In this document: positions 3,361-43,660 of the stretch, piece after piece
Layout of the letters: each line of letters begins with the position of its first letter
How positions within the stretch are numbered: position 1 is the stretch's first letter
From: Cetorhinus maximus
Taxonomy: Eukaryota
NCBI RefSeq assembly: GCF_964194155.1
Contig: NC_135901.1
Span: 8,184,001 to 8,248,000, forward strand
Length of the DNA: 64,000 nt
Direction: 5' to 3'
The notes under the pieces: generated by a model
The model's input: only the letters and a program-made list of their open reading frames with translations
What the model was told of the DNA's origin: nothing
Database searches by the model: none
Position numbers and translations under genes: made by a program

Positions 3361-3563
3361 CAGTGGTCACCACACATTATGAAGGATGTGAGGGTCCTTG
3401 AGAGAGTGCAGAGGAGGTTTACTAGGATGGTTCCAGGGATGAGGAATTTTAGTTGCAAGGTTAGGTTGGAGAAACTGGGGTTGTTCTCCTTGGAGCAAAC
3501 GAGATTGAGGGGAGATTTATAGAGAGGTACAAATTTATGACAGGTTTACATGAGGTAGATAAA
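3361..3563 (+). mobile_element. CR1 LINE ORF2 C-terminal fragment
   Basis: [37 protein letters not shown]; homologous copy at about 28860-29040 on the minus strand. Confidence 0.85.
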
Positions 3564-4347
3564 GTGAGTTGAGATGAGTGCTTCAATCCAGTCCCACAGT
3601 GGGAGCACCTGAACGGCCTCTCACCAGTGTGAATTCGCTGGTGTGCGGTTAGTCCAGACAATCGAATGAACCCAGTCCCGCAGTGAGAGCACCTGAATGG
3701 TCTCTCATCAGTGTGAACACGTTGATGGGACATCAGTTCCCCAGAGCTTTTATAGCACTTCTCACAGTCTGGACATTTAAAAGGTCTCTCCCCAGTATGA
3801 ACTCTCTCATGTCTCAGCACATGAGACAATGGAGTGAATCTCTTCCCACACACATAGCAGGTGAATGGCCTCTCACTACTTAATTCGCTGGTGTACAATG
3901 AGTTGAAACGATCCCCTGAACCCAGTACCACAGTGAGAGCACCTGAACGGTCTCTCAACAGTTTGAAGACATTGATGGTACATCAGGTCCCCAGAACTTC
4001 TGTAGTATTTCCCACAGTCTGGACATTTGAAAGGTCTCTCCCCAGTGTGAATTCACTGGTGTGTCAGCAGGTCGGATAGCCGAGTGAATCCCTTTCCAAA
4101 TTCGGAGCAGGTGAACGGCCTCTCCCCAGTGTGAATGCGTCGATGAGCTTCCAACTCAGACGGGTAACTGAACCTCTCCTCACATTCCCCACATTTCCAC
4201 TGTTTGTCCCCACTGTAAACGGTGCTTTTTCCTTCCACGTTCAAAATCTGATGACATTCAGGTTACGATAAATTGAGCGACTCCATCAGATCCTGATGTG
4301 ATACTTGCTTTGAGTTTCCCAACTGCAAATCCTCCCCCTCTAATACT
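3564..4347 (-). pseudogene. C2H2 ZNF pseudogene (unit 1, subfamily A)
   Basis: ORF pieces 4053-4244 and 3461-3958 with HTGERPF linkers; TGA in place of the usual CGA at 4053-4055; Cys->Phe; frameshifts; GTG at the start position; 3' end cut off at the CR1 fragment; acceptor AG at 4348-4349. Confidence 0.85.
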
Positions 4348-11151: not shown

Positions 11152-11455
11152 ATGGTGGCATAGTGGAAATATCACTAAACTAGTGATCCAGAATCCCAAG
11201 CTAATGATCTGGGGGACAAGGGTTCAAATCCCAGTGGAATTTGAATTCAAGTAATAATCTGGAATTGAAAAGCTAATCTCAATAATGATGACCATGAAAC
11301 CATTGTTGTAAAATCCCATCTGGTTAACCACTGCCCTTCAGGGAAGGAAACCTGCTGCCCTTACCTGATCTGGCCTACATGTGATTCCAGACCCACAGCA
11401 ATGTGGATGACTCTTAACTTCTTATGGTGTGATAAGCGACTCAGTTCAAGGGCAA
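11152..11455 (+). mobile_element. tRNA-derived SINE
   Basis: A box TGGCATAGTGG and B box GGTTCAAATCC; body repeated at 15665-15935, 14185-14625, 21500-21790 and 43085-43445. Confidence 0.8.
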
Positions 11456-11459
11456 CAAA

Positions 11460-11560
11460 ACCATAAAACGTTGGAAAAACTCAGCAGGTCTAACAGCATC
11501 TGTGGAGAGTTAAAAAAAACAGAGTTAACATTTCGAGTCCATATGATTCTTCTTCAGAGT
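11460..11560 (-). mobile_element. Penelope-derived terminal repeat with minimal hammerhead motif (family I)
   Basis: Minus strand CTGAAGA-A-GAATC-ATATG-GACTC-GAAA-TG-T-T followed by the family I body. Confidence 0.65.
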
Positions 11561-11869
11561 CATCCCTTCAAGCCGTTCAGTGTCTTGTCTATTACCAAGT
11601 ATTCTGATTGTCCCAAAGTCGAAATTAGGTTGAAATCCCTGATGTGCTGTAACGAGAATCCTTTCAATTTCTCAGATCAGTTAATTTCACTGATAACATC
11701 AGAATCAATGTTCCAGCGTCTTAAAGAAGGGAAAGGTGCCTTGACTGACACACACTAAGTCCAGATGTCAGTTTTTCTCCTCTTAACCCAGAGAAATTAA
11801 GACCACAGATGCTAAAACTGATTTCCTTGACATATTCTGATATATCCTGACCATTGACTAACTGTAAAT

Positions 11870-12185: not shown

Positions 12186-12893
12186 TCACACATGAACCTG
12201 CTGGTGTCTCAACAAGTTGGATGGTCGGTTGAATCCCTTCCCACATTCGGAGCAGGTGAATGGCCTCTCCCCACTGTGAGTGCGTTGGTGTGTCTGGAGA
12301 TTGGATGACTGAGTGAATCGCTTCCCACACACGGAGCAGGTGAATATCCTTTCCCCAGTGTGAACTCGCTGATGTTGAATAAGGTGAGATGATTGTCTGA
12401 ATCTCTTCTCACAGTGAGAGCAACTGAATGGTCTCTTGTCAGTGTGAACAAGCTGGTGTTTAATTAGATCAGGAGAGGTTTTAAAGCAATCTCCACAGTA
12501 AAAGCATTTAAAAGGCCTCTCGTCACTATGAACTCTCTGGTGTGACCCCAGGCTGGATGACTTAGTGAATTCCTTTCCACACACAGAACAGGTGAACGGT
12601 CTCTCCCCAGTGTGACTGCGTCGGTGAGTTTCCAGCTGGGATGGAAAACTGAATCTCTTCCCACAATCCCCACATTTCCACGGTTTCTCAATGGTGTGGG
12701 TGTCCTTATGTCTCTCCAGGTTGGAAGATCTGTTGCAAACTTGTCCACACACAGAACACATGTACAGTTTCTCCCTGCTGTGAATGGTGTGATGTTTTTT
12801 CAGGCTGTGTAACTGGTTAAAGCTCTTTCCACAGTCAGTGCACTGGAACACTGTTACTCGGGTGTGTGTGTGTCTCGGTGCTTTTCTGGTCAC
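12186..12893 (-). CDS. C2H2 zinc-finger protein, 8 fingers (unit 2, subfamily B); start uncertain, first in-frame ATG at 12761
   Basis: 235-aa open frame of CxxC..HxxxH repeats with HTGERPF linkers; acceptor at 13055-13056; promoter P2 upstream. Confidence 0.8.
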   Translation of the reverse strand: MTRKAPRHTHTRVTVFQCTDCGKSFNQLHSLKKHHTIHSREKLYMCSVCGQVCNRSSNLERHKDTHTIEKPWKCGDCGKRFSFPSQLETHRRSHTGERPFTCSVCGKEFTKSSSLGSHQRVHSDERPFKCFYCGDCFKTSPDLIKHQLVHTDKRPFSCSHCEKRFRQSSHLIQHQRVHTGERIFTCSVCGKRFTQSSNLQTHQRTHSGERPFTCSECGKGFNRPSNLLRHQQVHV

Positions 12894-13189
12894 ACTGATG
12901 TTTGTAATCTTTTCCCACAGACAGATCAGAGAAACATTTCTCCTTCCACATTCAAAGGCTGATGATATTCAGGTCCTGATGAATCGACTGACTCTGAGAG
13001 GTGTTGATTTGATGTTTGGTTAGTTTTCTATGCAAATCATCTCCTTCTAATATCCTGCAGAAAGAGTTGACAGTGTCAGTATCGCTATAAGTTCATGTTA
13101 GAAATTCAAAACAGACAATTCTAGTTTCTAGTTTTCTCTCTCTGTTCTTCCAAACAAGTGATCTAAATCAAACTAAAAGGAGCCCCAAA

Positions 13190-14184: not shown

Positions 14185-14625
14185 TTTTTTTCATTCATCA
14201 CAGGATGTGGGTGTCACTGGCAATGCAGGCATTTATTACCATCCCTAATTGCCCTTGAGAACGTGATGGTGACCTGCCTTCCCAAACCGCTGCAATCCAA
14301 TTGAATTTTACTTTCTCTGAGCGGTTTTCACATGACCAAGTGGCTTATGCACCATTAAGCACATTGCTGTTGGTCTGGAGTCACCTGAAGACCAGATGAG
14401 GCTGGGATGGCAGATTTCCGCTCCTCGAGGATGTCAGGGGACCAGTTGGACTTTTGTAACAATGCATTCGTTTCATAATCACTGATAACAGCTTTTATAG
14501 TAGGTTTTTATTCCAGATTTATCGAATTAATTGAATTTAAAATCTCTAATTGTTGTGATGGGATTTGAACTCACATCTCCAGATCATTATTCCCTCTCGA
14601 TTAGTAATCCAGTAATGTAACCACT
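14185..14625 (-). mobile_element. tRNA-derived SINE with CR1-group LINE tail
   Basis: Reverse complement of the 11152 family, with gggatttgaac B box and a poly(A)-like end. Confidence 0.7.
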
Positions 14626-14629
14626 AAGT

Positions 14630-14943
14630 CTGGGCATGTCATCAGAATGCTTGAATTCAGATTGACAAACAGGTGCTGTACTCAGAGCTACACCAGGGAG
14701 GCCCTTCACATGGGACCAAAGGAAACTTTTCAAAGACAATCTCAAGGCCTCCATGACATTCTGTTCTATCAACATAAACACTTGGGAAGCAGATTCCCAA
14801 TCACCTCCAAAATGGTGATTCATCATCCAAAAACGTTTCAATCAACAAGAGCAGCCACTGAGAGAGACAAACAGCGAGGGCAGCTGCTCGTGTCAACAAT
14901 CCACCACCAACTCCACAGGCTGACAACCCCCATGTCCTCACTG
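14630..14943 (+). mobile_element. RTE-clade LINE 3' fragment
   Basis: KQVLYSELHQG...QRK.FKDNLKASM motif, typical of the RTE ORF C-terminus. Confidence 0.6.
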
Positions 14944-15177
14944 ATAAAAAACAAAAAACTGCGGATGCTGGAAATCCAAAACAAATACAGAATTACCTGG
15001 AAAAACTCAGCAGGTCTGGCAGCATCGGTGGAGAAGAATAAAGTTGACGTTTCGAGTCCCCATGACCCTTCAACAGTTCTGCTGAAGGGTCATGAAGGAC
15101 TCGAAACGTCAACTTTATTCTTCTCCGCCGATGCTGCCAGACCTGCTGAGATTTTCCAGGTAATTCTGTTTTTGTTT
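14944..15177. mobile_element. Fold-back Penelope-derived element with two inverted hammerhead-like motifs and a 15-bp TSD
   Basis: About 95-bp inverted arms; direct repeat CCCATGTCCTCACTG at 14929-14943 and 15178-15192; AGTT-CTGCTGA-A-GGGTC-ATGAAG-GACTC-GAAA-CG-TC-AACT at 15075-15114. Confidence 0.8.
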
Positions 15178-15479
15178 CCCATGTCCTCACTGTTGGGAGA
15201 GCCTGCAAGGCTAAAATAGGGCTCATTAGTCGTTTGTGAACCCACAGCTAACACTGACATCTCACTTCCGCCCAGTCATCGACAAGAAAGAATCATCCCT
15301 GACATGAGGGATTGTCAATGGATAACCACAATGTTATCTTCTTTATCTGCGGATCGGATGTCGGTTACGCAATTGCAGCAGCAGTTAACAGCCTCCTGTG
15401 AACTCCTCCATGTGATATCTTAGTGCAGATTTTCAACAATTTATTTTGAGTGTGTTTATGTTAAATGAGTTAATACTGA

Positions 15480-16275
15480 TTTTATAAACCAATTGTTAGG
15501 CCTCAGTTGGAGTGCCATATTCATTTCTGGGCATCACACTTTAAACAGGATTTCAAAGCCTTAGAGGTGATTTACTAGAATGGTACCAAGGATAAGAGGC
15601 TTCAGTTATATGGAGAGACTGGAGAAACGGGGATTGTTTTCCTTGGAGCAAAGGGTCAAAAATGGAGGTGGTGGCATTGTGGTATTGTCACTGGACTAGT
15701 AATCCAAAGACCCAGGAAAATGCTCTGGAGACTGGGTTCGAATCCCACCAAATCTCATGATGACCATGAAGTCCTTATCAAATGTCATAGAAACCCATCT
15801 GGTTCACTAATGTCCTTTAGAGGAGGAAATCTGCCATCCTCACCTGGTCTGGCCTGCATATGACTCCAGACCCACAGCAATATGGTTGACCCTTAAAATG
15901 CCCAGAACTGACACCACATGGACTGCAGCAGTCTGAAAGAAAAAAGATGCAATAGCAGTTTTCAAAATCATGAACGGCTTTGACAAACTAAAGAAAGAGG
16001 AAGGGTCTCCAGTGGCAGAAAAATAGCTAATCAGAGGACACAGATTTCAGAACATCTTTTTTAAGCAGTGTGTTTTTGTGATCTGGAATGCACTGCCTGA
16101 AAGGGTGCTGCAAGCAGATTCAATAGCAACATTCTTGGGAGAATTGAATAAATAGTTGAAGAGAAGAAATATCCAAGTCTAGGAGTAAAGAGCAGAGGAG
16201 TGGGACTAATTCGATGGCTCCACTAATGAGCTGGTACAAACATGATGAGCTGAACACCTTCCTTTAGCCCCTGTA
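15480..16275 (+). mobile_element. Old CR1 3' fragment with a nested SINE (15665-15935)
   Basis: Degenerate VRPQLE..FW...RLEK.GLFSLEQ plus CR1 tail; SINE A and B boxes. Confidence 0.7.
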
Positions 16276-17984: not shown

Positions 17985-18470
17985 TTCACTACAACTCTGC
18001 CAATTATTCCCTCTTCAAGTATTGATCCAATTCCCTTTGAAAATTGCTAACATATCTGCTTCCAAACCCCTGTCAGTATGTGCATTCCAGGTCACATCAA
18101 ATCACTGCGTAAAAATGTTCTCCTTATCACTCCCTCCGGGTCTGTTGTCAAATATCTTAAATCTCTGAGTCCTCTGATTACAAACCTTCCTGCTCCTGGA
18201 AACAGTTTCTCCCTTTCGACATTATTACCAATCCTTCCTCATTTTGAACATCTCCATTAAATTTCCCCCTAAGCTTTTCTGATCTAAGAAGGACAACCCC
18301 TGTTTTTCCTGCTCAAAAGAAGAGTGATGTTGGACTGGAAACCTTAAATCTGTTTCTCTGTCCACAGATGCTGCCAGACCTGCTGAATTTTTCCAGCATT
18401 TTCTGCCTTTCGCCATTTTTCCTTCTTTAATCAATCAAAAACCCTTCATGATATTGAACATCTCAATTAA
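17985..18470 (-). mobile_element. Old CR1 3' fragment with a degenerate Penelope family I repeat (18310-18410)
   Basis: CR1-tail similarity; tccacagatgctgccagacctgctga family I body. Confidence 0.55.
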
Positions 18471-19446: not shown

Positions 19447-19613
19447 AAATAAAAGCAAAATATTGTGGATGCTGAAAATCTGAAATAAAAACAGAAAATG
19501 TTGGAAAAACTCAGCAGGTCTGACAGTATCTGTGGAGAGAGAAACAGAGTTGACGTTTCGAGTCCGTATGACTGAAGATGACCATACGGTCTGAAGAAGA
19601 GTCATACGGACTC
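19447..19613. mobile_element. Penelope family I fold-back element with a duplicated hammerhead-like centre
   Basis: Family I body; CTGAAGA-T-GACC-ATAC-GGTC overlapping CTGAAGA-A-GAGTC-ATACG-GACTC; imperfect flanking repeat gagaagttaagtga / gagagttgaagtga. Confidence 0.7.
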
Positions 19614-23045: not shown

Positions 23046-24209
23046 TCAGAATGAACATGGTTCAGTCCTGGTATGATTAACAGCATCAACAGGAGTAGAA
23101 TACAAACCTTGCAATCGTTTGTGAATCCACTGGTGTGTTCGCAGGTGTGATGACTGAGTGAATGCCTTTCCGCAGGCATTACAGGTGAACGGCCTCTCCC
23201 CACTGTGAACTCGCTGGTGTTTCAGCAGATAGGATGAATGAGAAAATCTCTTCCCACACACAGAGCAGGTAAATGGCCTCTCCCCACTGTGAATGCTCTG
23301 GTGTGTCAGCAGGTTGGATAACTGAGTGAATCCCTTCCCACACACAGAGCAGGTGAACGGCCTCTCTCCAGTGTGTACTCGCTGGTGATTCAATAGGTTG
23401 GATGACCGGGTGAATCCCTTCCCACACACGGAGCAAGTGAATGGTCTCTCCTCAGTGTGAACCTGTTGGTGTGTCAGAAGGTTAGATGAACGAGTGAATC
23501 CCTTCCCACAGTCAGAGCAGGTGAACGGTCTATCCCCCGTGTGAAGTTGCTGGTGTATCAGAAGGTTGGATGAATTAATGAATCCCTTCCCACAGTCAGA
23601 GCAGGTGAACGGCCTCTCCCCAGTGTGAATTCGCTGGTGATTCAGTAGGGCAGACGGACGGCTGAATCCCTTCCCACAGTTGGTACAGGTGAATGGCCTC
23701 TCTCCAGTGTGAGTATATTGATGTGTTAGCAGATCCTTTTTGCTTTTAAAGCTCTTGTCACAGTCAGAACAATTAAAAAATTTGTTATCAGAGTGAACAA
23801 GTTGATGTGTCAGAAGGTGGGATGACTGAATGAATCCCTTCCCACACACGGAGCAGGTGAACGGCCTCTCCCCAGTGTGAATACGTTGATGTACCAGCAG
23901 ATCTTTTCTGCATTTAAAACTCTTCTCACAGTCAGAACATGTAAACGGTCTCTTATCAGTGTGCACAAGTTGGTGTGTCACAATGTGGGATGACCGAGTG
24001 AAGTCCTTCCCACACACAGGGCAGGTGAATGGCCTCTCCTCAGTGTGAACTCGCTGGTGTGTCCGAAGGTTGTACAAATGGGTGAATCCCTTCCCACAGA
24101 TGGAGCAGGTGAACGGTCTCTCCCCAGTATGACTGCGCCGATGAACTTCCAGTTGGGATGGGAAATTGAATCCCTTCCCACAGTCCACACATTTCCATGG
24201 TTTTTCCAT
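23046..24209 (-). CDS. C2H2 zinc-finger protein, 13 fingers (unit 3, subfamily B)
   Basis: 387-aa ORF from ACCATGG; 13 C2H2 fingers; two minus-strand AATAAA at about 22995-23011; acceptor at 24574-24575. Confidence 0.92.
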
Positions 24210-24839
24210 GGTGTGGGGGTCCTTGTCTCTCTCCAGGTTGGACGATTAGTTGAAGCCTTGTCCACACACAACACGTGAACAGTTTCTCCCCACTGTGAAT
24301 GGTGAGATATTTTTGCAGACTGTGTAACTGCTTAAAGTTTTTTCCAAAGTCAGTTCACTGGAACACTCTCACTCAGGTGTGTGTGTGTGTTGAGGCTTTT
24401 CCAGTCACACCGATGTTTGAAATCCTTTCCCAAAGACAGAATAGACAAATATTTCTCCTTCCACATTCAAAAGATGATGATATTCAGGTCCTGATGAATT
24501 CAGTGCCTCTGACAGATCTTGATGTGATGTTTGCTTTGCGTTTTCTGTCTGCCAGTCACCTCCGTTTCATACCCTGTAAAATGAGTTTACAAAAGTCATC
24601 ACTTTAAATCCAGGACTGAAATTCAGAACAGACAACTGTAGTTTCTATGGAACATTTCTTCCTCTCTTGTTCCCCCAAAGCTGTAAATCCCCGTCCCACA
24701 CACTCTCCCTCCTCCCTGGGCTGAAATCCAAACCCATCTCACCATCTCCACCATTTCTTTCCTCCACTCCCAGTTTTCTCCCTCCCTCTCCTCTGCCTGG
24801 GTTCAGTTCTCCAGCTCCTGTGTCTCTGATTCAGGGTCT

Positions 24840-25300: not shown

Positions 25301-26034
25301 ACAAAATAGAGAACGAAAACAATTTTCTGCTACCCAATTGTGAACAAATAAAAGGAAAAATCACACGTAAATCCTAGTAAATGGGTGCTCTGCCATGTTC
25401 CATTTCTCGAAGTGATTTAAACATATCTCAAGCCAGCTCAAACGTGTTAAGGGCAAGTCATGTTCTACTAACTTGCTGTGAATTCTTCAAAAATGCCCAT
25501 TCCCCTTCCTTCTGCTGTATAATGGAAGTTCCGTGCATTGGTGTTTCTTTATCGTTTGGTTCTGATCTATATTGATTGGTCTATGGTCAAAGTTTCAATC
25601 CCATAACCACAAAGTAATCACAAAAAAAATATTTTTCACTCACAATTACCCAGCACCCCAGCAGCTGGGATTCTGCATTGCGACTGGAGGAGCTCCTGCC
25701 CACAGATTCTGCCTCCGACAAATGTTGTTCTTATAGTGGCTGTCGCTGTGATTGATTTTTTGTGGGCTTTTCTGGGATGAAATTGCCCATTGCCCCCGTA
25801 TAGTTGGAACCCTGGTTCTGAAATACTGTCCGTCTGATTTTAAGGCTTCCTGGAATAATGCACTGATGGAAATCTGCAATAATCAATGGTCCCATCTGAG
25901 TTGCAGATTTTAATGTGATTGTCCAATCTAGAAAAAAAATCATTTCACCCCTTTAAACCTGATTCAGCTGATCCCCTCCACACATGCTACAAAAGATTAT
26001 TTTTGAGATCAGCTGTTCCTTTATAGTCTGTAAG

Positions 26035-26133
26035 AAAAACAAAAAATGCTACAAAAATTCAGCAGGTCTGATAGCATCTGTGGAAAGAAAGACAGAGTTA
26101 ACGTTTTGAGTCCGTATGACTCTTCTTCAGAGT
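26035..26133 (-). mobile_element. Penelope family I repeat with hammerhead motif (G12 mutated)
   Basis: Minus strand CTGAAGA-A-GAGTC-ATACG-GACTC-AAAA-CG-T-T-AACTCT. Confidence 0.65.
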
Positions 26134-26429
26134 CTGTGTTATTCTGAATTATGACATTCTCCTGAACCTGTCCTAACCCTTCTGCCAGTTCACTTATTGG
26201 AAACAGGGACTCTCCTTGTTTTAATGTTAACACTCCATGTCTCCCCAGTTATTCATTTAAGTCAGCCCATGAATTGTTTGAGCATTGTTTCATCATGTTC
26301 CCACATTTCATTAACAAATGTTGAAACGTATGCTTCACACCCACAGGGTTTCATCTGTTTAAAGCCACAAACAAAGGTCCAGTTTTCTCCTGGAGGTTGA
26401 GACAAATCAGCTTTCAAAATGATGCAGAG

Positions 26430-28859: not shown

Positions 28860-30200
28860 TTTTTATAAACTTTTGCATCTCTATCAGATTTCCCCTCAAC
28901 CTCCTTTGCTGCAAGGAGAACAACCCCAGTTTCTCCAACCTAACATTGTTACTAAAATCCCTCATCCCTGGAACCATTCTGGTAAATCTCCTCTGCACCC
29001 TCTCAAGGACCCTCACATCCTTCATTATGTGTGGTGATCACTGGTTTGCACAGACCCAGATGTTCAGTGTTCGTGTCTGTGATGTCATCACGCACCGACA
29101 ATTGATCAGTGACATCACCCCCACTCCCCGGGTATTTCCTCAACTGGGAGATTTTTCTCTGACTCCAGTGTTTCTGATATCTTTCCAGCTGCAAGCTCCA
29201 GCAGGAGATTTTAATATTGAAAACTGAAATTGGTTCAGAGGTGAGTATTTTTGACCATTCCTCTACAATTTAGAGCTTTTAGTGCTATTCCCTGTTATCT
29301 GTGAGAGGTTCCATGGCTCTGAGGCTGGTGTGGCTCCTTTACTGTGGATCTGAATCCATGTCCACCCATTGCTCTGTTTCACCTCTGCCCTCCCTGATCA
29401 CCTCCCTGCCATTGTCTAACTTCCTCTGTCTCTAATAATGGGTGTGTTTTAGTTATGTTCAACATTTTACTGTTACTTCTACCAACTGCGTCTAAATGAG
29501 GTTTCCACCACTGCCCATCACCTGATCATGTGCTGCTGGCTTTCCAGCTTTATCTTCCCATAGTATGTTTCATGGTCAGGAATTGTTTTTCCTGCACTGT
29601 CGTCCATTTCTCTTCTGTTTCTGAGTTTATATTGACCATCAAATTCTGCAGCATTTTTACTTCCCATAGTTCATTCTGCACACCCTGAAACACTAACTCT
29701 TTTTCTCTCCCCACAGTTACTGCCTGACCTGCTGAGAATTTCCATCATTTTCTCTTTTTGTTTCAGATTTCCAGTAGCTGCAGTATTTTGCTATTATTTT
29801 ATTGCAGGCGTTGTTCACAGAACTGAATCTGGAAACACAGACGGACCAGTTAAGAGCCGGTTTTTGCAGGGTAGACATTGATGGCTGAAGTTGGTCCCTG
29901 GCCTCCAGTGTTGGTCCTTTTTCATTGAGTCATAGAATCATTGAATGGTTACAATACAGCCAGAGGCCATTTAGCCTATCATGCCCATGCTGGCTCTCTG
30001 TAAGAGCAAGAGTTAGTCCCACTCCCTGACCTTTCACTAACAAGACTAGCAGCAGATATTACCCATCCCCACTTACCTGTGGAGAAGATGATGTTTGACC
30101 TTCTTGAACCACTGCAGTCTGTGTGGTGAAGGTGCTCCCACAATGTTACAGGCTATTCACCCAGTGATGATGAAGGAACAGTGATATATGCTGAAATCAA
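28860..30200 (+). repeat. Segmental-duplication block, copy B, with putative non-coding exon and donor GTGAGT at 29241
   Basis: Homologous to 2540-3563 (reverse complement) and 41060-42400. Confidence 0.85.
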
Positions 30201-31070: not shown

Positions 31071-31589
31071 GATGGTGTGTGAGTTGAAAGGGAACTTGGA
31101 GGTGATGGTGTTCACACACACCTCCCAGCCTGGCCCTTCTAGGTGGTGGAGGTTCAGAGTTTTGATTTTCTGTCAAAATTCTGGTTGAGTTGTAATCCCT
31201 CTTTTTCAACCCTTCCCTCTCCCACCCCGACCCTTCTCTCTCTTCCTGTCTTCTCCCATCTAGGCCGGTGCCTTGTGTAGGCCCAGACTGGGTGGCAGGT
31301 TCCCTTCCCTGAAGGACATAAATGAACCAGTTGGGTTTTTATGACAATCCAGCAGTTTTCATGGTCACTTTTTCCTGGTGCCGGCCCCACTAATTACCAG
31401 ATTCATTCAGCTCAATTTCACAACCTGTTTTTGTGGGTTCTCTCTCACTCCCTTTTCTCTGTTTTAAATCAATTTCACAGGGTATTAGAAGGGGAGGATT
31501 TGCAGTTGGGAAACTGAAACCAAACATCACATCAGGATCTGACAGAGTTGCCCAGCTTATCGTCACCCAAATATCATCGGAAGTTGAAC

Positions 31590-32669
31590 ATGGAAGGAAA
31601 AAGCACCGTTCACAGTGGGGAGAAACCGTACACGTGTTCTGTGTGTGGACGAGGCTTCAACCGATCATCTAATCTGTTGAAACATAAATGCAGTCAGAAC
31701 AGGGAGAAACCGTGGAAATGTGGGGACTGTGGGAAGGGATTTAATTACCCATCAGAGCTGGAAAATCATCAACGAATTCACACTGGGGAGAGGCCGTTCA
31801 CCTGCCCTGAGTGTAGGAAAGGATTTACTTGTTCGTCCAGTCTGCTGAAACATTGGCGAGTTCACACTGGGGAGAGGCCGTTCACCTGCTCCGAGTGTGG
31901 GAAGGGATTTGCTCGCTCATCCACCCTGCTGACACACCAGCGAGTTCACACTGACGAGAGACCTTTCAAATGCCCAGACTGCGGGAAGTGCTTTAAAAGT
32001 CCCCGGGAACTGACTGCCCATCAACGTGTTCACACTGACGAGAGGCCATTCAGGTGCTCTCACTGTGGGACTGGGTTCAAGACATTATTTAACCTCACTG
32101 TACACCAGCGAATTCACAATGGGGAGAGCCCATTCACCTGCTCCAAGTGTGGGAAGGGATTTGCTAACAGATCCACCCTGCTGAATCACCAGAGTATTCA
32201 CACTGACGAGAGACCTTTCAAATGTCCAGACTGTGGGAAGTGCTTTAAAAGTTCCGGGGACCTGATGATCCATCAACGTGTTCACACCGATGAGAGACCG
32301 TTCAGGTGCTCTCACTGCGGGACTGGGTTCAGACAATCATCTCAACTCATTGTACACCAGCGAATTCACAATGGGGAGAGACTATTCACCTGCTCAGAGT
32401 GTGGGATGGGATTCACTCGCTTATCCATCCTGTTGACACACCAGCGCACTCACACTGGGGAGAGGCCATTCACCTGCTCAGAGTGTGGGAGGGGATTCAC
32501 AACCACATCCTCCCTGCTGAGACACCGGCGAGTTCACACTGGGGAGAGGCCATTCAGCTGCCCCGAGTGTGGGAGGGGATTCACAACCACATCCTCCCTG
32601 CTGAGACACCGGCGAGTTCACACTGGGAGAGGCCATTCACCTGCCCCGAGTGTGGGAGGGGATTCATAA
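31590..32669 (+). CDS. C2H2 zinc-finger protein, 12 fingers plus a frameshifted 13th (unit 4, subfamily A)
   Basis: ATG at 31590 ([14 protein letters not shown]); missing G at about 32625 puts the last finger (to 32710) out of frame; acceptor at 31479-31480; AATAAA near 32777 and 32824. Confidence 0.85.
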
Positions 32670-39224: not shown

Positions 39225-39372
39225 AAACAAAAAGCTAAAAGCTACTGCGGATGCTGGAAATCCAAAACAAAATAAAAACAGAATTACCTGGAAAAACTCA
39301 GCAAGTCTGGCAGCATCGGCGGAGAAGAAATCAGTCAACGTTTCGAGCCCTCATGGCCCTTCAGCAGAACTG
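39225..39372 (-). mobile_element. Penelope family I repeat with hammerhead-like motif
   Basis: Minus strand AGTT-CTGCTGA-A-GGGCC-ATGAG-GGCTC-GAAA-CG-T-T-GACT (39333-39371). Confidence 0.7.
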
Positions 39373-41059: not shown

Positions 41060-43660
41060 TTTTTCTCTGACTCCAGTGCTTCTGATATCTTTCCAGCTGC
41101 AGGCTCCAGCAGGAGATTTTAAATTTGAAAACAGTGAAATTGTTTCAGGGGTGAGTATTATTGAACATTCATCGACAATTTAGAGCTCTTAGTGCTGCGC
41201 TGTCGTCCCATGGCTCTGGGGCTGGTGTGGCTCCTTTACTGTGGATCTGAATCCATGTCCATCCATTGCTCTGTTTCACCCTTACCCTTCACAATCACCT
41301 CTCTACCGTTGTATGGATCCCTCTGCCTCTAATGTTGGGTGTATTTTAACCATGTTTGGTATTTTACTGTTATTTTCACCAACTGTGTCTAAATGAGGTT
41401 CCACTGCTGCCCATCCCCCCAGCTATTCACTGCTGATTTACCAGCTTTATCTTCCCATGGCCAGGAATTGTTTTTCCTGCACTAGAGATCATTTCTCTCC
41501 CACTTCTGAGCTTATATTGACTGTCAAATTCTGCTTCATTTGTATTCCCCATAATTCATTCTGTACACCCTGAAATTTTAACTCTTTCTCTTTCCACAGT
41601 TACTGCCTGACCTGCTGAGTATTTCCAGCACTTGCTCTTTTTATTTCAGATTTCCAGCAGCTGCAATATTTTGGTTTGGTTTTATTGCAGGCATTTCTCA
41701 CAGAACTGAGTCTGGGAACAGAGATGAACCAATTAAGAACGGATTTGTATTTGGGTGGGTGTTGATTGGAGAGGTTGGTCCCTGGCCTCCAGTGTTAGAC
41801 TTTTTCATGCAGCCATAGAATGATTACAATACAGGAGGCCATTTATCCTGTCATTCCTGTGCTGGCTGTGTGCAACTGCAGATCAGCTAGTCCCACTCCC
41901 TGCCCTTTCCTCATAGCCCAGCTTTTTCTCTTCAGGTACTTATCCAATTTTATTTTCAAAGCCTTTGCTGTATCAGTTTGAGCTGGAGTGGAGATGGAGG
42001 AGAAGCTGCTGGGTTTAACCACAAGGACCCGGCAATTTCCAACGTGAAATTGTCAAAGGGAGGTAGGTTCTGGGGAAGATGAGGTTGCTGAGCAGACACT
42101 GGCCATGAAATGTAAAAGATCATTGTTTTAGGAAAAAATATTTCTGTAGATGCTTTTAATCTATTCTACAAATGCATACTTATAAAATCTATTCTGGGGA
42201 TTTGGGCGTCACTAACAAGACCAGCAGCAGATATTTCCCATCCCCAGTTACCTGTGGAGAAGATGATGTTTGACCTTCTTGAACTGCTGCAGTCCGTGTG
42301 GTGAAGGTGCTCCCACAATGATGTTAGATAAGGAGTTACAGGTTATTCACCAGTGATGAAGAAGAAACAATGATATATATCCAAATCAATAACAACAATC
42401 TGTATTTATATTGCAACTTTAATGTAACAAAATGTTCCAAGGCATTTCCCAGAAATATTACAAAGCAACATTTGACACTGAGCCACATAAGGAGATATTT
42501 GGGCAGGTGACCAGAAGCTTTGTCAAAGAGGTAGGCTTTAAGGAGTATCTTAAAGGGGGAAATTGAGGTAGAGAGGCAGAGAGGTTTAGGGAGGAAATTC
42601 CAGAGCTTACGGCCTAGGCAACTGAAGGCACAGCCACCAAAGGTGGAACAGTTAAAATAGGAATGCTCAGGAGATTGGAATTAGATGAGCACAGATATCT
42701 CAGAGGGTCATGAGACTGATGGAGGTTACAGAGACAGGGAGGGGCCAAGGAGGAATTTGAAAATAAGGATGAGAAATTAAAAATTTAGATTCTTCTTAAC
42801 CAAGAACCTTTGTCGGTCAGCGGGCACAGGAGTGATGGGCGAGGAAAACTTGGTGTGAGTAAACACAAGGGCAGCAGAGTTTTGGATAGCCTCAAGATTA
42901 CAGAGAGGTTGAATGTGGGAGGCTGGCACGGAGTGCCTTAGGATAGTTAAGTCTAGAGGTAACAAAGGAATGGATGAGAGTTTCAGCAACAGGTGAGCTG
43001 AGACTAGGGCAGAGTTGGGCGAAGTTACTGAGGTGGAAACAGGCCGTCTGGGTGATGATGAGGATGTGTGGTTGTAAGCTTTTTTCATTACTTATTCATG
43101 GAATGTGGGGTTGCTGGCTAGGCCAGCATTTATTGCCCATCCCTGATTGCCCTTGTTTAGAGGGCAATTAAGAGCCAGTCACATTGCTGTGGGTCTGGAG
43201 TCACACGTAGGCCAGACCAGGTAAGGACAGCAGATTTCCTTCCCTAAAGGACATTAGTGAACCAGATGGGTTTTTTTTTGTAGTAAAAACCCATCTGGTT
43301 TACTACTGTCCTCTAGGGATGGAATTCTGCCGTCCTTGTACTGGTCTGGCCGACATGTGACTCCAGACCCACAGCAATGTGGTTGACTCTTAACTTAGGG
43401 ATGGGCAATAAATGCTGGTCTAGCTAGCGATGCTCACATCCCATGAACGAATGATTTTAAAAAAGAGCTCATCTTGGGGTGAAGTATTACACTAAAGTTT
43501 TGAACAGTCTGGTTCAGCCTCAGACAGTTGCCAGGGAGAGAGATGAAGTCAGTTGTTAGGGAATGGAGTTTGTAGTAGGGACTGAAGACAACACTTTCAG
43601 TCTTCCCAGTATTTATATGAAAGAATTTTCTGTTCATTCATTACTGGATGTCAGACCAGT
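41060..43660 (+). repeat. Segmental-duplication block, copy C, including a minus-strand L2 fragment and nested SINEs (43085-43445)
   Basis: Colinear with 29150-31070; donor GTGAGT at 41151. Confidence 0.85.

Follow-up and report, generated by a model that had tools for sequence, protein, structure and literature searches.

A fold-back insertion in Cetorhinus maximus formed by two short, inverted ends of a Penelope-like element

The window analyzed here is a 64,000-nucleotide stretch (positions 8,184,001 to 8,248,000 of contig NC_135901.1) of the 4.0-Gb genome of Cetorhinus maximus. The region of the insert holds C2H2 zinc-finger exons and LINE fragments, and the cluster of zinc-finger exons includes window positions 3461-3982, 12186-12968, 23046-24245, 31518-32669 and others. 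The zinc-finger block was found to be duplicated many times on contig C24, and one flank has at least 30 paralogues. The target of the insertion (14760-14943 and 15193-15260; 1481-1780 of locus L043) is a decayed coding repeat that ends PCPHC...RACKAKIGL.SHL at an empty site, which we take to resemble the end of an RTE-type LINE. Two inverted repeat copies, 73% alike, lie at 15665-15887 and 14357-14461. A tRNA-like head with a weak match to tRNA-Sec is present as well, and the two are probably SINEs on either side of the insertion.

A head-to-head pair of very short, hammerhead-bearing ends (pLTR) of a Penelope-like element (PLE) occupies positions 14944-15177, one end with a tail and one without, within a target site duplication (TSD) of 15 bp whose exact copies lie at 14929-14943 and 15178-15192 on the plus strand. 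The left arm (14979-15076, minus strand) is an inverted copy of the PLE end that begins at hammerhead C3, and it alone bears the tail, 35 nt at 14944-14978 (minus strand) that have no partner in the right arm. The right arm (15074-15177, plus strand) is a direct copy running from just upstream of the hammerhead to a tail-less end. At the junction, 3 bases of microhomology (15074-15076) are common to both arms, and other haplotypes carry the same junction. Repeat comparison within the window gave inverted arms of 90 nt with 92% identity (14970-15059 and 15097-15186) and an inner inverted pair of 16 nt with 94% identity (15061-15076 and 15079-15094). RNA folding of the insert gave -174.5 kcal/mol (z = -22.0) for the plus strand and -181.7 kcal/mol (z = -23.4) for the minus strand, with none of 200 shuffled sequences folding equally well in either case. 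The near-palindromic 234-bp unit flanked by an exact 15-bp direct repeat that the initial annotation had described was thus borne out at base level. The 35-nt extension of the left arm, left unnamed in that annotation, is the PLE tail and aligns with the terminal part of long PLE copies, which in hammerhead coordinates lies at about +100 to +132 from C3.

Sequence searching with the left flank was employed to fetch 30 paralogous loci, which were then inspected. Eight were filled, with 249 bp between the flanks, and 22 were empty and carried the 15-mer once. Since the 15-mer is single at empty sites, the flanking repeat, proposed at the outset as a TSD, is a true target duplication. The coexistence of filled and empty paralogous sites dates the insertion within the expansion of the zinc-finger block. 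Eight genome matches are 99-100% identical to the insert and have 3.2 kb of flank in common at 99.3-99.8%; a young burst was considered as their origin and rejected because the common flank marks them as segmental duplicates of one insertion. The 22 dispersed top matches, picked for their likeness to the insert, are 93-96% identical to it over nearly the full length, and 16 of the 22 have an exact flanking repeat of their own of 12-18 bp by hand count.

Sequence comparison identifies both arms as the pLTR end of an endonuclease-containing (EN+) PLE with coding copies in the same genome. A single-arm relative at window positions 39229-39372 led to a locus (L065) at which a 393-aa frame, with RT-type motifs followed by a Cys linker and a GIY-YIG match, lies upstream of the same PLE end. 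The GIY-YIG match to Pfam had an E value of 1.6e-4 and 22.4 bits, below the cut-off of 22.6. The linker before the nuclease, CPRRRCNTC, reads C-x4-C-x2-C, and a Cys-rich linker between RT and EN is a feature of the Neptune clade (PMC8557442; this and the other sources are cited for the sections covered). By this linker the parent PLE would be Neptune-like. The parent continues past the tail into the start of an ORF, of which 494 exact 29-mers were counted, and its long frame begins about 170 nt after C3. Four near-full copies (L376-L379) comprise an end, the ORF start, the coding region and a second end. The first open frame in each is 676, 382, 383 and 379 aa long, respectively, and none of the four has an unbroken full ORF. 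The 676-aa frame of L376 gave a weak RVT_1 match (E = 0.0028, below the Pfam cut-off) and no match in a PDB sequence search. A hammerhead pLTR is present at both ORF ends, as a partial tandem, in these four copies and at 15 of 30 ORF-start loci. The retrotransposition origin that had been suggested is upheld.

Further arms were seen in the window. The one at 39229-39372 is a single arm of the same PLE lineage with the tail and 45 bp of upstream PLE sequence; it has a compensatory C-G pair in helix II and is segmentally duplicated too. Six older arms, from related subfamilies with 72-81% identity, lie at 11454-11561, 18317-18405, 19451-19572, 26032-26134, 29687-29790 and 41589-41677, the first of them with a canonical CTGAAGA core on the minus strand.

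The abundance of the family was estimated from exact matches counted on both strands, so that the counts are lower bounds. The exact hammerhead 29-mer had 15,047 genome matches, an arm 22-mer common to the older subfamilies had 73,318, and the short fold-back centre had 1,547, corresponding to over 1,500 stubs. A positional sample was taken from the first 98 of 100 listed places of the 29-mer on contig C1, leaving 85 loci after 5 overlapping ones were dropped; all samples come from the start of this contig. At these 85 loci the arms have their 3' ends in one of two places relative to C3, about +95 to +104 or about +132, and their 5' starts anywhere from +50 to beyond -1,500. Arm lengths thus grade continuously from about 100 bp to more than 1.5 kb, and the window insert belongs to the shortest class of this continuum. 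As a stub that has neither promoter block nor ORF, the insert was likely dead on arrival, and the single window copy shows no sign of a function of its own. Head-to-head pairs accounted for 59 of the 99 sampled arms; the unpaired arms comprised 23 with a tail, 15 without a tail and 2 that extend beyond the locus edge. At one locus (L157, 1710-2143) there are four consecutive short arms, three inverted and one direct, each starting at -2 to -4. Family sequence was also present in assembled contigs of four presumed-RNA runs, the contigs being uninformative on starts, strand and level.

The plus-strand motif (15075-15114) was aligned with 35 variants from long copies. It is laid out as a minimal type-I hammerhead in which core position 6 is C and loop II contains one additional base. 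Its 5' part consists of AGTT (15075-15078), CTGCTGA (15079-15085), the extra A (15086) and GGGTC (15087-15091), and its 3' part of GACTC (15098-15102), GAAA (15103-15106), ACGT (15106-15109), C17 (15110) and AACT (15111-15114). Helices I and II, the extra base, GAAA and ACGT are thus all found on the plus strand, in agreement with the PLE-type minimal layout with a palindromic helix III that had been read there. By direct reading, the minus-strand motif (15042-15076, core CTGTTGA) starts at C3 and lacks half of helix I, the 5' strand of which reads AGAA and allows 2 of 4 pairs. The claim of a hammerhead layout on each strand consequently holds in full for the plus strand and is incomplete for the minus strand. 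An Rfam search of the insert returned no hammerhead match; the ten matches at E values up to 10, all below the gathering score, were mostly to miRNA hairpin models.

Core position 6 in the window copy is C on the plus strand and U on the minus strand, in departure from the canonical CUGANGA core. The letters agree with the caveat raised initially, that the conserved A6 is replaced; however, the change is not decay of one copy and characterizes the parent lineage as a whole, in which 37 of the 15,047 motifs have A6. Among the 99 sampled arms A6 was not found; the cores were CTGTTGA (64), CTGCTGA (18) and CTGCCGA (6), 88 arms altogether, and the remaining 11 were cut or mutated. The older subfamilies have canonical CTGATGA or CTGAAGA cores. 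Across 36 distinct variants, 93% of the helix II cells were paired, and two-sided changes among subfamilies occurred at 2 of the 5 pairs (G-C to A-U in 3 and U-A to C-G in 2), which confirms covariation in helix II, with the counts inflated by sequence relatedness. Helix I and GAAA were fixed by the selection of the variants and are uninformative in this respect.

When the transcript of the whole stub was folded, the pair probability of the hammerhead was 0, and forcing the hammerhead cost 48.5 kcal/mol; for the right arm folded alone the pair probability was at most 0.005. In silico, the long hairpin of a whole-unit transcript therefore excludes the hammerhead fold. The changed core letter likely weakens the ribozyme motif as well, and the window copy is predicted, with high likelihood, not to be an active ribozyme. 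In a natural A6C hammerhead, activity was low but could still be detected (PMC3088659), and the minimal hammerheads of PLEs show weak cutting in vitro, and this as dimers only (PMC4209133). A footprint of cleavage was sought in the arm starts: in a sample of 155 arms, biased toward those that contain the hammerhead, 2 had their start at the cut site (+31). These two, in the flanks of L137 and L149, are older-subfamily arms that begin exactly at +31 and are too few to call. Among the first 100 listed of 14,588 older-subfamily matches, about 1-2 had no upstream core by eye, and there was no peak at +31. Sequence upstream of the cut site is retained in the arms. The RNA template was likely not cut by the hammerhead, in which U or C replaces A6 across the lineage.

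The structure of the fold-back pairs was analyzed in 46 of the first 50 listed short fold-backs. The tail was on exactly one arm in all 46. In 48 pairs of all lengths, a set that includes a few pairs from older subfamilies, 42 had one tail, 4 had two and 2 had none. Among the short fold-backs there are 33 junction types, two of which recur (7 and 4 of 46). The commonest was seen on three arm haplotypes and in both orientations relative to the tail, which indicates recurrence by microhomology and not by descent; the recurring junction was also found in a diverged subfamily (L228). A three-site haplotype was the same in both arms of 38 of 43 scored fold-backs (5 discordant, 3 unscored), as against a mean of 8.7 and a maximum of 18 when the pairing was shuffled 10,000 times. 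Furthermore, the two arms of a pair are correlated in their 5' extent (rho = 0.67 for 42 pairs and 0.66 for the 18 long ones). In 11 of the 42 pairs the tail-less arm was longer by at least 10 nt, in one case by over 600 nt, and the tail arm was longer in 14. By hand count, a flanking repeat of at least 12 bp was present in 34 of the 46 short fold-backs (33 of 12-17 bp and one of 28 bp); it was absent in 12, several of which have one arm cut short.

The 5' starts of 123 arms fell past -30 in 65 cases, at -29 to -7 in 14, at -6 to -2 in 30 and at -1 to +5 in 14. There is thus a pile-up just before the hammerhead, with 30 starts over -6 to -2 compared with 14 over the 23 positions from -29 to -7. 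A TATATT is found 29 nt upstream of A(-4) in 53 of the 65 long copies, and positions -6 to -1 of the long copies read TCAGTT (31) or TTAGTT (29), which resembles the initiator consensus. In a rotifer pLTR, TATA and Inr-like motifs have been noted (PMC3846280). We put at about even odds the possibility that the transcript starts near -4 and that the short arms are run-off products. Of the ends that run into the ORF start (n = 15), 12 extend to -28 or beyond, and only 3 have their start near -4 to +8, so that a transcript start at -4 needs a template jump or a tandem insertion to restore the upstream part.

An extra G as the signature of capped 5' run-off was rejected as unsupported, the base before A(-4) being nearly evenly G or A (of the first 30 loci, 14 have G and 16 have A; of the 100 listed, 46 have G and 54 have A by hand count). 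By eye, T is commonest before G(-3), and the two monomers whose TSD could be resolved lacked an extra base. A 3' splice site can equally be read at the pile-up, where CAG or TAG follows a pyrimidine tract, and in D. virilis an intron ends at helix I (PMC4209133). Inspection by eye of the 5' ends of the short arms revealed no common upstream exon such as a spliced template would leave.

A mechanism was read from these genome footprints alone. A single event probably gave rise to the insert, with the protein of the element priming from both target strands to reverse-transcribe one RNA. A staggered target cut about 12-17 bp apart, presumably by the element's enzyme, would leave the observed TSD. 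Of the two cDNAs, one would begin where the tail ends (about +132 from C3) and the second some 30 nt inward of it, at +95 to +104, the end points seen in the arms. Both would head for the 5' end of the RNA and halt at similar places, which may be why their extents correlate; in the short class the halt is just before the hammerhead, likely the transcript start. The 3' ends of the cDNAs would then be joined through short overlaps or a few extra bases by a repair route consistent with the variety of junctions. Two primers on one RNA, with each fold-back built afresh where it inserts, fit the one-tail rule, the varied junctions, the common arm haplotype and the correlated lengths, whereas independent RNAs would not be expected to give one tail nearly every time. 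The shared haplotype could also reflect one source locus making both RNAs, or later conversion between arms, and the exceptions to the model are the 5 of 43 pairs with discordant arms and the 6 of 48 pairs outside the one-tail rule. In LINE-1 twin priming, likewise, two target-strand primers on one RNA give an inverted product inside one TSD. However, the two LINE-1 pieces copy different parts of the RNA, whereas both arms of the insert copy the same part. Tail-only partners, as in L1-like twin priming without overlap, passed a formal test at none of the 15 tail-less unpaired arms; anecdotal cases were seen in L083, L171, L269 and L305.

A bolder reading, with a probability of roughly 0.45, goes further. 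The stubs may be direct footprints left by a PLE dimer. This dimer would use one uncleaved RNA, on which it would prime from both strands of the target at two fixed internal positions, and it would run off the transcript 5' end just before the hammerhead. The lineage would have reached more than 15,000 ends after A6 had changed to U or C with the helices kept, and the motif would act not by cutting but as a fold or a site for protein binding. An unlikely alternative retains the PLE origin and attributes the mirror arm to self-priming, the first cDNA or an antisense transcript folding back and being copied. Self-priming on an antisense template has been proposed (PMC3846280), and it accounts for the identity of the arms, their correlated lengths and small palindromes at junctions. 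However, a tail arm that serves as template cannot yield a longer tail-less arm, and the frequent excess length of the tail-less arm, which the window copy itself displays, excludes copy-back of the tail arm as its source.

Less probable still is a retrozyme- or SINE-like palindromic element, itself non-autonomous, whose 234 nt would be transcribed as a single unit and mobilized by PLE machinery. The 1,547 short fold-backs, the two recurring junction types and the nearly full-length dispersed matches are what such a unit would give, yet those matches were selected for likeness, the arm lengths are continuous and the hairpin blocks the hammerhead. The 33 junction types in 46, and the recurrence of one of them on three haplotypes, in both tail orientations and in the subfamily of L228, also speak against a single unit. 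The independent, non-coding, retrozyme-like element of the initial annotation was accordingly not sustained: the arms are ends of a coding PLE on a continuum of lengths, with junctions that vary and recur on different haplotypes. A MITE or foldback DNA transposon, with terminal inverted repeats on which a cut-and-paste transposase would act, is highly improbable. Such elements are likewise short, palindromic, numerous and flanked by a TSD, but here the ends are asymmetric, with a one-sided tail, the TSD varies in length (33 of 46 fall within 12-17 bp) and the arms are continuous with the coding region of an element with RT and GIY-YIG.

An inverted 5'-truncated copy, a tail, a TSD and a pLTR with TATA and Inr-like motifs are already described for EN+ PLE insertions (PMC3846280, PMC8557442). 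Pen2a_Av of Adineta vaga (PMC3846280; scheme in the legend of Fig. 2 of PMC8557442) likewise has a head-to-head 5'-truncated copy, a tail of 30-40 bp at one end, a TSD and a TATA/Inr-like pLTR, whereas here both halves are only about 100-135 bp, there is no ORF and the stubs number over 1,500. The TSD is 12-17 bp here and 8-10 bp in the rotifer PLE examples (PMC3846280). With the minimal hammerheads of metazoan PLEs (PMC4209133) the motif has in common the type-I layout, the extra base between 9 and 10.1, G10.1-C11.1, the palindromic 15.2-16.2 and the lack of loop III; it differs in having U or C instead of A at core position 6, the core variant reported there being U3-A8. In Schistosoma, hammerhead pairs on opposite strands lie 100-700 bp apart (PMC4209133).

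The Poseidon element PAc of Anolis has two internal RT start sites that bound the tail in vitro, both target strands are cut and extended, a dimer is predicted and insertion occurs without hammerhead cleavage (PMC11167929). The family described here would resemble PAc in the two tail-bounding start sites, the use of both strands and the dispensability of hammerhead cleavage. In contrast, the ORF of PAc starts in hammerhead stem II, the long frame of the parent PLE begins well downstream of it, as given above, and the linker of the parent is Neptune-like (PMC11167929, PMC8557442). In the sections covered of PMC11167929, inverted pairs are not derived from two-strand priming.

Animal non-LTR retrozymes (bioRxiv 10.64898/2026.07.22.740005; PMC7229834) are, like the insert, non-coding and PLE-derived with a type-I hammerhead, but they are head-to-tail tandems with at least two complete same-strand hammerheads, whereas the insert is head-to-head with one motif per strand (bioRxiv 10.64898/2026.07.22.740005). 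Classification of the insert as a retrozyme was rejected on this tandem same-strand definition (bioRxiv 10.64898/2026.07.22.740005; PMC6155905). Head-to-tail tandems of a hammerhead end with about 100-150 bp of ORF start were seen elsewhere in the genome (L371, 981-1988; also L347, L351, L356 and L373). They have 2-3 repeats with the same upstream break point and fit the layout of a non-LTR retrozyme, or copying from small RNA circles, better than the window insert does.

The layout, tail, TSD and hammerhead are thus already known for PLEs, and what the insert adds is a set of useful mechanistic footprints. A full-text literature search, mostly without subscription papers, Repbase/Dfam entries and supplements, did not find shark fold-back stubs, two-strand priming as their cause or a PLE lineage devoid of A6; the supplements of PMC4209133 and PMC11167929 may bear on this. 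Stubs of this kind are easily taken for MITEs, miRNA hairpins or retrozymes, which poses a risk for annotation. In the sections covered of PMC11167929, PMC8557442 and PMC4209133, the origin of inverted one-tailed PLE insertions and the role of PLE hammerheads are open questions, and the family offers thousands of young, short, easily aligned cases. The strict one-tail rule, the common arm haplotypes and the correlated lengths make the model of two strands primed on one RNA testable in vitro. Moreover, the success of a lineage that lacks A6 offers a natural test of the importance of hammerhead cleavage.
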